Of a stretch of 64,000 bases of DNA, positions 51,211-56,050 are shown piece by piece. The translations under genes and the position numbers were made by a program. The stretch comes from Escherichia coli. Lineage in GTDB: Bacteria > Pseudomonadota > Gammaproteobacteria > Enterobacterales > Enterobacteriaceae. Numbering within the stretch: position 1 is the first letter of the stretch; every line of letters begins with the position of its first letter. Location: NCBI RefSeq assembly GCF_003334405.1, contig NZ_QOWM01000005.1; one strand, given 5' to 3'. The notes under the pieces are model-generated. The model did no database searches and was not told the origin of the DNA. It was given only the letters and a program-made list of their open reading frames with translations.

Positions 51211-51486
51211 ATGCCAACAGTTCTCTCTCGCATGGCGATGCAACTCAAAAAAACAGCCTGGATAATTCCCGTCTTCATGGTTTCGGGATGCTCATTATCT
51301 CCGGCAATCCCGGTGATCGGCGCTTATTATCCCAGCTGGTTTTTCTGCGCCATTGCCAGCCTTATTTTGACGCTCATCACGAGGCGAGTTATTCAGCGGG
51401 CAAATATCAATCTGGCATTTGTCGGAATTATTTATACCGCCCTTTTTGCTCTCTACGCCATGCTGTTCTGGCTGGCATTTTTCTAA
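51211..51486 (+). CDS. ytcA: Small lipoprotein YtcA (91 aa) preceding mdtNOP
   Basis: Translation from MPTVLSRMAMQLKKTAWIIPVFMVSGCSL (lipobox VSGC) then a hydrophobic segment; start at internal ATG 51211. Confidence 0.75.
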   Translation: MPTVLSRMAMQLKKTAWIIPVFMVSGCSLSPAIPVIGAYYPSWFFCAIASLILTLITRRVIQRANINLAFVGIIYTALFALYAMLFWLAFF

Positions 51487-51504
51487 TCTATTTGAGACGC
51501 GCTC

Positions 51505-52536: not shown

Positions 52537-54587
52537 TGAGCGCGCTCAACTCCCTGCCATTACCGGTGGTCAGGCTGCTGGCGTTCTTTCATGAAGAGTT
52601 AAGCGAGCGGCGACCAGGTCGCGTGCCGCAGACCGTGCAACTCTGGGTAGGCTGCCTGCTGGTGATTCTGATCTCGATGACCTTTGAGATCCCTTTTGTG
52701 GCGTTATCGCTGGCAGTGCTGTTTTACGGTATTCAGTCGAACGCGTTTTACACCAAATTTGTCGCGATCTTGTTTGTGGTTGCCACGGTGCTGGAGATCG
52801 GCAGCCTGTTTTTGATCTACAAATGGTCATACGGCGAACCGTTGATCCGATTGATCATCGCCGGACCGATCCTGATGGGCTGCATGTTTTTGATGCGCAC
52901 CCATCGCTTGGGGCTGGTCTTTTTCGCCGTCGCCATTGTCGCTATTTACGGGCAAACCTTCCCCGCCATGCTCGACTATCCGGAAGTGGTCGTGCGCTTA
53001 ACGCTGTGGTGTATCGTTGTTGGCCTCTATCCAACCTTGCTGATGACGTTAATCGGCGTGCTGTGGTTTCCCAGTCGTGCCATTTCGCAAATGCATCAGG
53101 CGCTTAATGATCGGCTTGATGATGCCATTAGTCACCTGACAGACAGCCTCGCACCGCTACCCGAAACGCGGATTGAAAGAGAGGCGCTGGCGCTACAAAA
53201 ACTCAATGTCTTTTGCCTCGCGGACGATGCCAACTGGCGAACTCAAAACGCATGGTGGCAAAGCTGCGTGGCAACGGTAACCTACATTTACTCGACGCTG
53301 AATCGCTACGATCCCACCTCTTTTGCTGATTCTCAGGCAATTATTGAATTCCGACAAAAATTAGCTTCAGAAATCAACAAGCTGCAGCATGCCGTTGCTG
53401 AAGGTCAGTGCTGGCAAAGCGACTGGCGGATCAGTGAAAGTGAAGCGATGGCGGCACGGGAATGTAACCTGGAGAATATCTGCCAGACGTTGTTACAACT
53501 GGGTCAGATGGACCCGAATACGCCGCCAACGCCCGCAGCCAAACCGCCATCAATGGCCGCCGATGCTTTTACCAATCCAGACTATATGCGCTACGCGGTA
53601 AAAACGCTGCTCGCCTGTTTGATCTGTTACACCTTTTACAGCGGCGTGGACTGGGAAGGCATTCACACCTGTATGCTGACATGCGTGATCGTCGCTAACC
53701 CAAATGTCGGTTCGTCGTACCAGAAGATGGTGCTGCGTTTTGGCGGGGCCTTTTGCGGCGCGATTCTGGCGCTGTTATTCACGCTACTGGTCATGCCCTG
53801 GCTGGACAATATTGTCGAATTGCTGTTTGTGCTGGCACCGATTTTCCTGTTGGGCGCATGGATTGCCACCAGCTCTGAACGCTCTTCTTATATCGGCACA
53901 CAGATGGTGGTCACCTTCGCGCTCGCCACGCTCGAAAACGTTTTTGGCCCAGTGTACGACCTGGTGGAAATTCGCGATCGCGCCCTGGGTATCATCATTG
54001 GTACCGTGGTGTCCGCGGTGATTTACACCTTTGTCTGGCCTGAAAGTGAAGCGCGCACACTGCCGCAAAAACTGGCTGGCACGCTGGGTATGTTAAGTAA
54101 AGTAATGCGGATCCCACGCCAGCAGGAAGTCACGGCTCTGCGCACTTATCTGCAAATTCGTATCGGTCTGCATGCGGCGTTTAATGCCTGTGAAGAGATG
54201 TGCCAACGCGTGGCGCTGGAGCGTCAACTGGACAGCGAAGAACGCGCATTACTGATTGAACGTTCGCAAACGGTTATTCGTCAGGGCCGCGATCTTCTTC
54301 ACGCCTGGGATGCCACCTGGAACTCGGCGCAGGCGCTGGATAACGCACTACAGCCGGACAGAGCAGGTCAGTTTGCCGACGCCCTGGAGAAATACGCTGC
54401 CGGTCTGGCAACCGCACTCAGCCGTTCTCCTCAAATAACGCTTGAAGAGACACCCGCCTCTCAGGCCATCCTGCCCACCTTATTAAAACAGGAGCAACAC
54501 GTCTGCCAGCTTTTCGCCCGCTTGCCAGACTGGACAGCCCCGGCATTAACGCCCGCCACGGAACAGGCACAAGGAGCCACGCAATGA
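52536..54587 (+). CDS. mdtO: Efflux inner-membrane component MdtO (683 aa)
   Basis: Two hydrophobic blocks separated by a soluble region; start shares a base with the mdtN stop. Confidence 0.93.
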   Translation: MSALNSLPLPVVRLLAFFHEELSERRPGRVPQTVQLWVGCLLVILISMTFEIPFVALSLAVLFYGIQSNAFYTKFVAILFVVATVLEIGSLFLIYKWSYGEPLIRLIIAGPILMGCMFLMRTHRLGLVFFAVAIVAIYGQTFPAMLDYPEVVVRLTLWCIVVGLYPTLLMTLIGVLWFPSRAISQMHQALNDRLDDAISHLTDSLAPLPETRIEREALALQKLNVFCLADDANWRTQNAWWQSCVATVTYIYSTLNRYDPTSFADSQAIIEFRQKLASEINKLQHAVAEGQCWQSDWRISESEAMAARECNLENICQTLLQLGQMDPNTPPTPAAKPPSMAADAFTNPDYMRYAVKTLLACLICYTFYSGVDWEGIHTCMLTCVIVANPNVGSSYQKMVLRFGGAFCGAILALLFTLLVMPWLDNIVELLFVLAPIFLLGAWIATSSERSSYIGTQMVVTFALATLENVFGPVYDLVEIRDRALGIIIGTVVSAVIYTFVWPESEARTLPQKLAGTLGMLSKVMRIPRQQEVTALRTYLQIRIGLHAAFNACEEMCQRVALERQLDSEERALLIERSQTVIRQGRDLLHAWDATWNSAQALDNALQPDRAGQFADALEKYAAGLATALSRSPQITLEETPASQAILPTLLKQEQHVCQLFARLPDWTAPALTPATEQAQGATQ

Positions 54588-56050
54588 TCAATCGTCAACT
54601 TTCACGTCTGCTGTTGTGCAGCATTCTCGGCAGCACGACGCTGATTTCCGGCTGTGCCCTGGTACGTAAGGATTCTGCACCTCATCAACAGCTCAAACCG
54701 GAACAAATCAAACTGGCCGACGATATTCATCTTGCCAGCTCCGGCTGGCCGCAGGCGCAGTGGTGGAAACAACTCAATGACCCGCAGCTGGATGCGCTGA
54801 TCCAACGGACGCTAAGTGGTTCACACACCCTCGCCGAAGCGAAACTGCGGGAAGAAAAAGCGCAGTCCCAGGCCGATTTGTTAGATGCCGGTTCACAATT
54901 ACAGGTCGCAGCGTTAGGGATGCTCAACCGCCAACGTGTCTCGGCGAACGGCTTTTTAAGCCCTTATTCAATGGATGCGCCAGCACTGGGTATGGACGGG
55001 CCGTACTATACGGAAGCCACAGTAGGTTTGTTTGCCGGACTGGATCTTGATTTGTGGGGTGTGCATCGCTCAGCGGTTGCCGCCGCCATTGGCGCGCATA
55101 ATGCCGCGCTGGCAGAAACCGCAGCAGTAGAGCTATCGCTGGCCACGGGCGTAGCGCAGCTTTATTACAGTATGCAGGCCAGCTATCAGATGCTCGATCT
55201 GTTAGAACAAACTCACGATGTGATTGATTACGCGGTGAAAGCGCACCAGAGTAAAGTGGCGCACGGTCTGGAAGCGCAAGTGCCTTTCCACGGCGCGCGG
55301 GCACAGATTCTGGCGGTCGATAAACAAATTGTTGCCGTCAAAGGGCAAATCACCGAAACGCGAGAATCTCTGCGTGCATTGATTGGCGCGGGAGCCAGCG
55401 ATATGCCGGAGATCAGACCGGTGGCATTACCGCAAGTCCAGACCGGCATTCCGGCGACACTCTCTTATGAGTTGCTCGCCAGACGCCCGGATCTGCAAGC
55501 CATGCGCTGGTATGTTCAGGCGTCATTAGATCAGGTGGATTCCGCGCGGGCGTTGTTCTATCCGAGCTTTGATATCAAAGCGTTTTTCGGTCTGGACTCC
55601 ATCCATCTGCATACCTTATTCAAAAAAACCAGTCGCCAGTTCAACTTCATCCCGGGTCTGAAATTGCCGCTGTTTGACGGTGGACGGTTGAATGCCAATC
55701 TCGAAGGCACGCGCGCCGCCAGCAACATGATGATTGAACGTTACAACCAGTCAGTACTGAACGCGGTGCGTGACGTTGCCGTCAACGGCACGCGTCTGCA
55801 AACGCTCAACGACGAGCGAGAAATGCAGGCTGAACGCGTGGAAGCCACGCGCTTTACCCAGCGCGCTGCCGAGGCCGCCTATCAGCGCGGCTTAACCAGC
55901 CGCTTACAGGCCACCGAAGCCCGGTTGCCAGTGCTTGCCGAAGAGATGTCATTACTGATGCTGGACAGCCGCCGGGTGATCCAAAGCATTCAGTTGATGA
56001 AATCGCTGGGCGGCGGGTATCAGGCAGGTCCCGTCGTCAAGAAAAAATAA
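54584..56050 (+). CDS. mdtP: Outer-membrane efflux lipoprotein MdtP (488 aa, OMF/TolC-like)
   Basis: Lipoprotein signal (LISGCALV) plus OMF domain; overlaps the mdtO stop by 4 bp. Confidence 0.93.
   Translation: MINRQLSRLLLCSILGSTTLISGCALVRKDSAPHQQLKPEQIKLADDIHLASSGWPQAQWWKQLNDPQLDALIQRTLSGSHTLAEAKLREEKAQSQADLLDAGSQLQVAALGMLNRQRVSANGFLSPYSMDAPALGMDGPYYTEATVGLFAGLDLDLWGVHRSAVAAAIGAHNAALAETAAVELSLATGVAQLYYSMQASYQMLDLLEQTHDVIDYAVKAHQSKVAHGLEAQVPFHGARAQILAVDKQIVAVKGQITETRESLRALIGAGASDMPEIRPVALPQVQTGIPATLSYELLARRPDLQAMRWYVQASLDQVDSARALFYPSFDIKAFFGLDSIHLHTLFKKTSRQFNFIPGLKLPLFDGGRLNANLEGTRAASNMMIERYNQSVLNAVRDVAVNGTRLQTLNDEREMQAERVEATRFTQRAAEAAYQRGLTSRLQATEARLPVLAEEMSLLMLDSRRVIQSIQLMKSLGGGYQAGPVVKKK

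Follow-up and report, generated by a model that had tools for sequence, protein, structure and literature searches.

What part does the small gene ytcA, which precedes mdtN, mdtO and mdtP, play in an efflux pump that is among the least understood of Escherichia coli? This question is raised by a locus in the window, the whole stretch of 64,000 nucleotides of E. coli DNA that was analysed, in which a sequence-only reading had recognized ytcA and the three efflux genes, while calling the role of YtcA unclear. RefSeq annotation and family models uphold the four gene names: RefSeq lists ytcA, mdtN, mdtO, mdtP and fdhF with identical borders for all five genes, the ytcA-mdtNOP region is 100% identical to that of E. 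coli K-12 MG1655, and it was found in 5420 of 5426 complete E. coli genomes. The locus is the ytcA-mdtNOP efflux operon of E. coli K-12, annotated before, and as such is ordinary and already known.

By its layout, ytcA-mdtNOP is a single operon in which ytcA is the first of four genes (Table 1): the genes lie on a common strand, their junctions are short or overlapping, there is no internal terminator, and terminator-like hairpins stand on both flanks. The 91-codon ytcA frame that had been described earlier is present as stated, and so are the overlaps of 1 to 4 bp that join the efflux genes, with 1 bp shared by mdtN and mdtO (TAATG) and 4 bp by mdtO and mdtP (ATGA); the distance between ytcA and mdtN, however, is 18 bp (51487-51504) and not 19 bp. 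An AGGA is located 10 nt 5' of the ytcA ATG. On the upstream side, the hairpin of yjcS sets that gene apart from the ytcA operon and is followed by the AT-rich region in which the operon promoter would be expected. A strict sigma-70 scan of the + strand upstream of ytcA returned no promoter, and the best candidates of a relaxed search (51041..51210, + strand) agreed with the consensus at only 8 of 12 positions; a published account describes the mdtNOP promoters as lacking experimental confirmation (PMC11762307). On the downstream side, both a terminator scan and folding recovered the hairpin that the earlier reading had placed at the end of the operon before fdhF, a gene that starts at 56248. 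This hairpin (56057-56082) is followed by UUUCGUUUCG, and its folding energy of -19.6 kcal/mol (z = -3.6) was reached by none of 200 shuffles. The scan found 12 terminator-like sites against 7.1 expected by chance, and the matches inside the operon were all weak (5-8 pairs, of which 3-4 were G-C pairs).

Table 1. Features of the ytcA-mdtNOP region, in coordinates of the window.
Feature	Position	Strand	Description
Terminator-like hairpin of upstream gene yjcS	51011..51040	+	12-pair stem, then T-rich tail
AT-rich intergenic region	51041..51210	+	27.6% GC; expected site of operon promoter
ytcA	51211..51486	+	91 codons + TAA; Pfam YtcA family PF17090
Predicted lipoprotein signal peptide and lipobox	51211..51291	+	Residues 1-26, hydrophobic core, V-S-G-C, Cys27
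Mature YtcA	51292..51483	+	Residues 28-91; part aligning with AaeX/DUF1656
mdtN	51505..52536	+	Periplasmic adaptor (membrane fusion protein), EmrA/EmrK type; NF007785, TIGR00998
mdtO	52536..54587	+	Inner-membrane permease, FUSC (fusaric acid resistance / aromatic acid exporter) family; NF008510, PF04632, PF13515
mdtP	54584..56050	+	Outer-membrane channel, NodT family; NF007390, TIGR01845
Intrinsic-terminator-like hairpin, operon end	56057..56092	+	11 pairs, loop of 4, U-rich tail
Sigma-54-type motif TGGCATAAAAGATGCA	56181-56196		5' of fdhF; motif search

The three genes downstream of ytcA encode, as judged by family models, a tripartite envelope-spanning efflux pump with a FUSC-family inner-membrane permease, the permease, the periplasmic adaptor and the outer-membrane channel all being encoded at the locus. 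MdtN scored 535 bits with NF007785 and 419.7 bits with TIGR00998 (cut-off 390.8) and also matched the AaeA model in part, and MdtP scored 1022 bits with NF007390 and 272.8 bits with TIGR01845, the latter above the cut-off. MdtO reached 1370 bits with the MdtO equivalog model NF008510 (cut-off 821) and matched the Pfam models PF04632 (FUSC; E 1.3e-17) and PF13515 (FUSC_2; E 1e-7), and a PDB sequence search returned no MdtO relative. Reviews have classed the permease of MdtNOP as an MFS or RND protein (among them PMC8672772, PMC11762307), whereas its family matches identify MdtO as a FUSC-family permease, neither MFS nor RND.

The association of ytcA with such a pump extends to other genomes. 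We examined 80 genome loci from Burkholderiaceae, Pseudomonas, Serratia, Pantoea, Nitrosomonas and one Puniceicoccales genome, a sample skewed to Burkholderiaceae and Pseudomonas that was collected with the 18-sequence GAYFPDW subfamily as query, and 77 of these had enough downstream DNA to judge. The check named by the sequence-only reading, co-occurrence of ytcA homologues with MdtO-type pumps in other genomes, came out in favour at 76 of these 77 loci, where a YtcA gene, an MdtN-like adaptor gene and an MdtO-like FUSC permease gene follow one another in this order on the same strand. An MdtP-like outer-membrane channel gene is also present at 62 of the 77, and 11 loci with complete flanks carry the YtcA-adaptor-FUSC set with no channel gene in the 7 kb downstream. 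The one exception, a locus of Pararobbsia alpina (L012), has a YtcA-like gene with no adjacent pump gene. Distant YtcA homologues (25-35% identity), whose contigs covered the remaining YtcA subfamilies, showed the identical order with Pfam FUSC and OEP neighbours on every longer contig, those of 695 and 959 bases being uninformative.

YtcA itself has the sequence features of a signal peptidase II substrate, namely a charged N-region with K13 and K14, the hydrophobic core AWIIPVFM and a lipobox of the form [LVI][ASTVI][GAS]C, which reads VSGC and ends at the Cys27 codon (51289-51291). Its RefSeq product name is 'YtcA family lipoprotein', and its residues 30-91 align with positions 1-62 of the 62 positions of PF17090 (E 1.7e-15). 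Of 141 listed YtcA representatives with mutual identities below 50%, 128 carry a Cys at a set spacing from the conserved G-[AS]-x-F-P motif that comes after it, and L-[SATG]-G-C is the consensus leading up to this Cys; the spacing amounts to 10 residues in 115 of these proteins. Because the Cys keeps this place in 128 of 141 representatives, the YtcA lipobox is evidently no chance match, and the earlier view of YtcA as a lipoprotein with the lipobox VSGC is strengthened both by the signal peptide features and by the family-wide Cys. Cys27 would thus be the acylated first residue of mature YtcA.

The conservation of the protein bears on the idea that ytcA is mainly an upstream reading frame, whose translation opens or couples that of mdtN and whose peptide has little or no function. 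The mdtN Shine-Dalgarno sequence is weak (GAGA), the gap from the ytcA stop to the adaptor start is short and conserved (median 18 bp in 76 loci), and an MdtOP-dependent phenotype independent of ytcA has been described (PMC8672772), all of which would suit such a device. The YtcA protein, however, is conserved among representatives with just 25-40% identity, and all 89 aligned family members match the curated Pfam YtcA family and share the invariant residues C27, G37, P41, W43 and W87. Invariant residues and a family-wide lipobox across such divergent proteins therefore argue for selection on the protein, beyond the act of translation, and we consider it very improbable that ytcA acts chiefly through being translated.

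In an AlphaFold2 model of YtcA (mean pLDDT 82), the mature protein consists of a short beta-hairpin, presumably periplasmic (residues 32-41), and two helices (42-63 and 71-90) joined by the basic loop RRVIQRAN. Averaged over the family, this loop holds 2.25 K+R, compared with 0.49 for the N-terminal segment and 0 for the first helix. A PDB sequence search returned no relative of the YtcA profile. E. coli YtcA has Ser rather than Asp at position +2, next to the Cys, and S, A, T or G predominate there in the family as a whole; the usual sorting rule would assign a soluble lipoprotein with such a Ser to the outer membrane. MdtP of the same operon is itself a predicted lipoprotein (lipobox I-S-G-C, Cys24), and most loci carry a channel gene (62 of 77); YtcA could accordingly be pictured as a Lol-sorted outer-membrane lipoprotein that assists the MdtP channel or the pump at its periplasmic end, and not the permease. 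Yet mature YtcA is nearly all two hydrophobic helices (~16-23 residues) and a K/R-rich loop, a hairpin that is the signature of an integral inner-membrane protein and for which Lol extraction is not expected; in addition, its relatives AaeX and YdhI lack a signal peptide, and the 11 loci with complete flanks dispense with a channel gene. Taken together, we judge an outer-membrane location and function of YtcA to be improbable. An inner-membrane YtcA would instead resemble the CyoA-type inner-membrane lipoproteins with transmembrane helices (named in PMC7139219), which are unrelated to it in sequence and function: it too has a lipobox Cys followed by two transmembrane helices, and these would keep it in the inner membrane regardless of the +2 residue. 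The same study handled YtcA as an ordinary membrane-binding lipoprotein, not as one of the helix-containing type (PMC7139219).

The relatives just mentioned belong to DUF1656 (AaeX, also called YhcR, and YdhI; PF07869), which Pfam treats as a family separate from YtcA. BLASTP aligned YtcA residues 28-88 with AaeX residues 2-61 at 38% identity (E 8e-6), and this alignment begins directly after the lipobox Cys. A profile comparison of YtcA with DUF1656 by hhalign gave a probability of 84%, which falls short of 95%, and E 7e-6 over 61 columns, with a shallow DUF1656 alignment of 8 sequences, all from Enterobacterales; the Pfam model is the better test. Against that model, E. coli YtcA scored E 0.0016 (18.8 bits) over just 32 residues, and 26 of the 89 YtcA family members matched at E <= 0.001, the best at 3e-8. 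HMM searches across the two families gave medians of 6.2 and 9.3 bits versus about 0 for reversed or shuffled controls, and maxima of 18 bits versus 3-10 bits. At E <= 0.001, the 80 YtcA ORFs all went undetected in single-sequence phmmer searches with AaeX or YdhI as query, and such searches matched no extra ORF at the 80 YtcA loci either. This evidence favours remote homology of YtcA with DUF1656 over membership of the Pfam family as defined, and we regard YtcA as a probable remote homologue of AaeX. A literature search found no paper linking ytcA with aaeX, ydhI or DUF1656, and what appears new in the present analysis is the alignment of mature YtcA with AaeX/DUF1656.

The resemblance extends from the sequence to the architecture of the protein and the operon. 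DUF1656 proteins are two-helix hairpins of about 65 residues, as is mature YtcA, and in both a conserved G-x-x-[FY]-P motif precedes the first helix, which is followed by a basic loop (RRV). Their genes stand first, ahead of those for a membrane fusion protein and a FUSC permease (aaeX-aaeA-aaeB and ydhI-ydhJ-ydhK in K-12), and ytcA likewise encodes a two-helix hairpin directly upstream of these two components. The families differ in that the 26-residue lipoprotein signal peptide and the lipobox Cys are found in YtcA only, with one loose match among the 117 sequences of the DUF1656 set, in the W-H-P motif before the second helix, which is present in DUF1656 and absent from YtcA, in the conserved Cys46 in the first helix of YtcA, and in the outer-membrane channel gene that YtcA operons usually have of their own. 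The pumps compare in a similar manner. MdtO, like the permeases of the AaeAB p-hydroxybenzoate pump and other FUSC systems, matches Pfam FUSC and FUSC_2 and aligns weakly with AaeB and YdhK; on the other hand, its identity with AaeB is only about 24% across a stretch of 157 residues, MdtN is nearer to the EmrA/EmrK adaptors, ytcA-mdtNOP has a dedicated NodT-type channel, and the substrates reported for MdtNOP, which are acriflavine, puromycin, pyrrolomycins and armeniaspirols, differ (literature including PMC8672772, PMC11762307).

The role of YtcA is less open than the sequence-only reading had it, given the probable homology with AaeX/DUF1656, and it is easier to guess now that an AaeX-type small protein is seen to head other pumps of the type. 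With confidence somewhat above even, we propose that YtcA serves MdtNOP as an accessory subunit, a two-helix protein of the inner membrane with an acylated N-terminus. YtcA would be made with a lipoprotein signal peptide, acylated on Cys27 after cleavage and anchored in the inner membrane by two transmembrane helices and a basic cytoplasmic loop, both ends being periplasmic. It would then do the same job as AaeX and YdhI, that of a small accessory subunit bound to the membrane part of the MdtO/MdtN complex, whose assembly, stability or activity it may support. The signal peptide and the lipid anchor would fix its orientation and hold its conserved N-terminal segment on the periplasmic surface of the inner membrane.

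Mutant fitness data from several bacteria tie DUF1656 proteins to their pumps, the small genes being cofit with the adaptor and FUSC genes of their systems (bioRxiv 10.1101/072470). These data also touch on the view that YtcA, a conserved neighbour, has no structural part in the pump but modulates or regulates it, for instance as a gate, an inhibitor under non-induced conditions or a sensor of envelope lipids, or that it has an unrelated membrane function. The DUF1656 systems of P. fluorescens are beneficial or detrimental depending on the condition (bioRxiv 10.1101/072470), and the orphan copy at L012 has no pump; moreover, a tolC strain that has lost ytcA and mdtN through an 8855-bp deletion shows mdtOP-dependent resistance to pyrrolomycin and armeniaspirol (PMC8672772), a pump working without YtcA. 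Since this strain is still resistant, YtcA is dispensable for that phenotype, at least with a foreign promoter driving mdtOP, which argues against a strict need for YtcA, although AaeX, YdhI or other adaptors might act as substitutes there. Against a modulator stand the tight linkage at 76 of 77 loci, the first position of the small gene in three paralogous E. coli operons, and the phenotypes of DUF1656 mutants, which resemble those of pump-gene mutants and are not opposite to them. We therefore hold a modulatory or unrelated function to be rather unlikely and retain the accessory subunit as the preferred reading.

A broader version of the accessory-subunit proposal, which we favour by a slight degree only, is that YtcA is a lipid-anchored branch of an AaeX/DUF1656 superfamily and that both families supply FUSC-type envelope-spanning pumps in general with a fourth component. 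In the YtcA branch, normal assembly or gating would require the N-terminal acyl chains and an invariant segment that faces the periplasm, C-x3-P-S-x4-G-x-[YF]-F-P-x-W, both of them touching the permease or the membrane-proximal part of the adaptor. If YtcA and AaeX/YdhI do form one superfamily, a four-part design would be present in three E. coli operons and in many of other Proteobacteria, and genetic and structural studies of these pumps ought to cover the small gene; the gain is modest, a refined annotation and no new kind of system. A small hydrophobic protein is also known from the AcrB RND pump, where AcrZ has been proposed to bind the membrane domain of the permease and to tune its activity. 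The likeness to the role proposed for YtcA is one of analogy only, that of a small hydrophobic partner of an efflux permease: AcrZ has no sequence relationship to YtcA, consists of one helix, lacks a lipid anchor, has its gene apart from acrAB and is the partner of an RND pump.

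The stretch 51000-56260 is identical (100%) to the corresponding region of E. coli K-12 MG1655 and is found in 5420 of 5426 complete E. coli genomes; two copies occur in a few of them, and 4 of the 5429 places at which it matches lie on plasmids, not chromosomes. RefSeq gives the gene order yjcS, ytcA (YtcA family lipoprotein), mdtN, mdtO, mdtP and fdhF. With gene borders taken from the ORF list and from direct reading of the sequence (see the table), the earlier sequence-only description of a lipoprotein gene leading an efflux operon proved exact in its genes, lipobox, overlaps and closing hairpin, as judged by the ORFs and RefSeq, and was off by one base in the ytcA-mdtN gap, given as 19 bp. 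The hairpin at the mdtP end (-19.6 kcal/mol, z = -3.6 versus shuffles) and a stronger one at the end of yjcS thus bound ytcA-mdtN-mdtO-mdtP by two terminator-like sites. Standard annotation already covers the locus, the gene names and the designation of YtcA as a lipoprotein; the small additions made here are a link between YtcA and AaeX/DUF1656 and a family-wide synteny, which together make the role of YtcA testable.

Coordinates of the operon, its flanking elements and the orphan ytcA-like gene
Feature	Position	Details
Hairpin, end of yjcS	51011-51040	stronger than the hairpin 3' of mdtP
ytcA	51211-51486	91 codons; then 18-bp gap to mdtN
mdtN	51505-52536	1-bp overlap with mdtO
mdtO	52536-54587	4-bp overlap with mdtP
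mdtP	54584-56050	operon end
Terminator-like hairpin	56057-56092	3' of mdtP; 11 pairs, U-rich tail
Sigma-54-type motif TGGCATAAAAGATGCA	56181-56196	about 50 bp 5' of the fdhF start; GG and GC 12 bases apart
fdhF	56248-58395	in-frame TGA at 56665-56667 read through
SECIS (bacterial selenocysteine insertion element)	56660-56714	Rfam RF01988, 87 bits
YtcA-like gene of locus L012 (Pararobbsia alpina)	6935-7219 (in L012)	neither adaptor nor FUSC gene within 7 kb

Scanning one genome per species with the alignment of one YtcA subfamily, we recovered 80 loci, mostly from Burkholderiaceae and Pseudomonas but also from Serratia, Pantoea, Nitrosomonas and a Puniceicoccales genome, and searched all their ORFs with the E. 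coli proteins. The YtcA-like gene is followed by same-strand MdtN-like and MdtO-like genes in 76 of the 80 loci (76/77 of those with enough downstream DNA to be informative), and 62 loci additionally hold an MdtP-like gene. Three of the four loci lacking pump genes stop within about 800 bases of ytcA, leaving L012 as the only true orphan; the genes next to its YtcA-like gene encode a TonB-like protein and, on the opposite strand, a YghX-like hydrolase. Between the stop of ytcA and the start of the adaptor gene the median spacing is 18 bp, the same as in E. coli. In other subfamilies (25-35% identity to E. coli YtcA) the YtcA-adaptor-FUSC order is kept on every long-enough contig, and the neighbours carry Pfam FUSC and OEP domains. 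The co-occurrence with MdtO-type pumps that the sequence-only reading had proposed as a check was thus found in other genomes, and the outcome it had named as refuting, ytcA homologues unlinked to efflux operons elsewhere, was not observed. Two short metagenomic contigs have a further ORF that runs up to or into the 5' end of the YtcA-like gene (L084, 3-302; L087, 2-436), so YtcA is not invariably the first gene of its cluster. The MdtO-like gene has about 356 codons in several Pseudomonas loci (L005, L006, L008, L038 and L069, ORF at about 8290-9360; L082 is similar). In L006, the one checked, this ORF has two matching stretches, the best aligning 178-353 with MdtO 328-504, and the short protein seems from its sequence to be devoid of the long cytoplasmic segments. 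The short gene is not followed by a channel gene; in L006 the next recognised gene encodes a gluconate transporter.

Two further adaptor-FUSC operons of K-12, aaeX-aaeA-aaeB and ydhI-ydhJ-ydhK, each begin with a gene for a small DUF1656 (PF07869) protein, the same position that ytcA takes in the same kind of operon. YtcA (PF17090) falls outside Pfam's definition of DUF1656 and is not classed as a member; E. coli YtcA gives a weak second match to that model (E 0.0016), and of 89 YtcA relatives 26 match it at E <= 0.001 and 57 at E <= 0.1. BLASTP aligns YtcA 28-88 with AaeX 2-61 (38% identity, E 8e-6), beginning one residue past the lipobox cysteine. Alignment of the two families by hhalign gave a probability of 84% (E 7e-6, 61 columns), and the profile of each family gives sequences of the other clearly higher scores than reversed or shuffled versions of them. 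No additional ORF was matched by AaeX or YdhI at the 80 YtcA loci in a single-sequence phmmer search, which also missed the YtcA ORFs and could therefore let a divergent DUF1656 gene escape. Based on these comparisons, mature YtcA is probably a remote DUF1656 homologue to which a lipoprotein signal peptide was added. In the literature searched, ytcA is nowhere mentioned together with aaeX, ydhI or DUF1656.

In the YtcA precursor, two lysines and a hydrophobic core precede the lipobox V-S-G-C with Cys27, and the mature protein has RRVIQRAN between two hydrophobic stretches. Modelled by AlphaFold2 from 89 relatives (mean pLDDT 82), YtcA shows a signal-peptide helix, a small beta-hairpin (32-41) and helices 42-63 and 71-90. 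Across the family, lysine plus arginine averages 2.25 in the connecting loop versus 0.49 in the N-terminal mature segment, which by the positive-inside rule places the loop in the cytoplasm and both ends in the periplasm. A scan of 1.84 billion representatives yielded 264 relatives (E <= 0.001). Among 141 new representatives drawn from the best 150 of these, 128 have a cysteine at a fixed distance before a conserved G-[AS]-x-F-P (consensus L-[SATG]-G-C), indicating that the lipobox is under selection and defines the family. Aspartate rarely follows this cysteine in these sequences, so that retention in the inner membrane would depend on the two helices, which we infer hold YtcA there. A simulation study placed YtcA among membrane-binding lipoproteins, apart from two named as having transmembrane helices (PMC7139219).

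According to a large mutant-fitness study, DUF1656 genes of several bacteria share operons and phenotypes with genes for a membrane fusion protein and a FUSC protein, and the study suggests that DUF1656 proteins are components of such pumps (bioRxiv 10.1101/072470). An aaeX mutant is described in a review as defective in biofilm formation. By analogy, YtcA would be co-expressed with MdtN, MdtO and MdtP, processed as a lipoprotein, kept in the inner membrane by its two helices and would serve the MdtN-MdtO complex as a small accessory subunit, a role we consider somewhat better than an even bet. The residues invariant in the 89-sequence alignment (C27, G37, P41, W43 and W87) are concentrated in the N-terminal segment and at the periplasm-facing ends of the two helices, which, speculatively, would put a contact on the outer side of the inner membrane, where adaptor meets permease. 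Evidence against the necessity of YtcA comes from a tolC strain in which the genes from alsR to mdtN, ytcA included, are deleted; this strain is resistant to pyrrolomycin and armeniaspirol, a resistance abolished by further deletion of mdtOP (PMC8672772). Paralogues may stand in for YtcA in that strain, or YtcA may merely modulate the pump.

MdtN scores above the cut-off for its own NCBIfam equivalog and for the EmrA/EmrK adaptor subfamily, and MdtP matches NodT-type channel models. MdtP, too, starts with a signal peptide of the lipoprotein type (54584-54655), with Cys24 in the lipobox I-S-G-C, making two predicted lipoproteins in the operon. MdtO matches its own NCBIfam equivalog, Pfam FUSC (E 1.3e-17) and FUSC_2; its alignment with the K-12 FUSC proteins AaeB and YdhK is weak, as are its Pfam/NCBIfam links to YccS/YhfK. 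Reviews and papers have labelled MdtO an MFS or RND pump or an AcrB homologue (PMC8672772, PMC11762307 and one further review); its sequence rules out MFS and RND, both databases assigning it to the FUSC family.

The 170 bp upstream of ytcA (51041-51210) have 27.6% GC versus 52% for the window, and a search of them for a sigma-70 consensus gave no good match. These features may be linked to poor mdtNOP expression in laboratory strains, which is implied by a promoter-capture deletion (PMC8672772). Beyond the operon, the ORF listing breaks fdhF at 56667 owing to the in-frame TGA of this known selenoprotein, formate dehydrogenase H. The motif at 56181-56196 fits the known sigma-54 promoter of fdhF.
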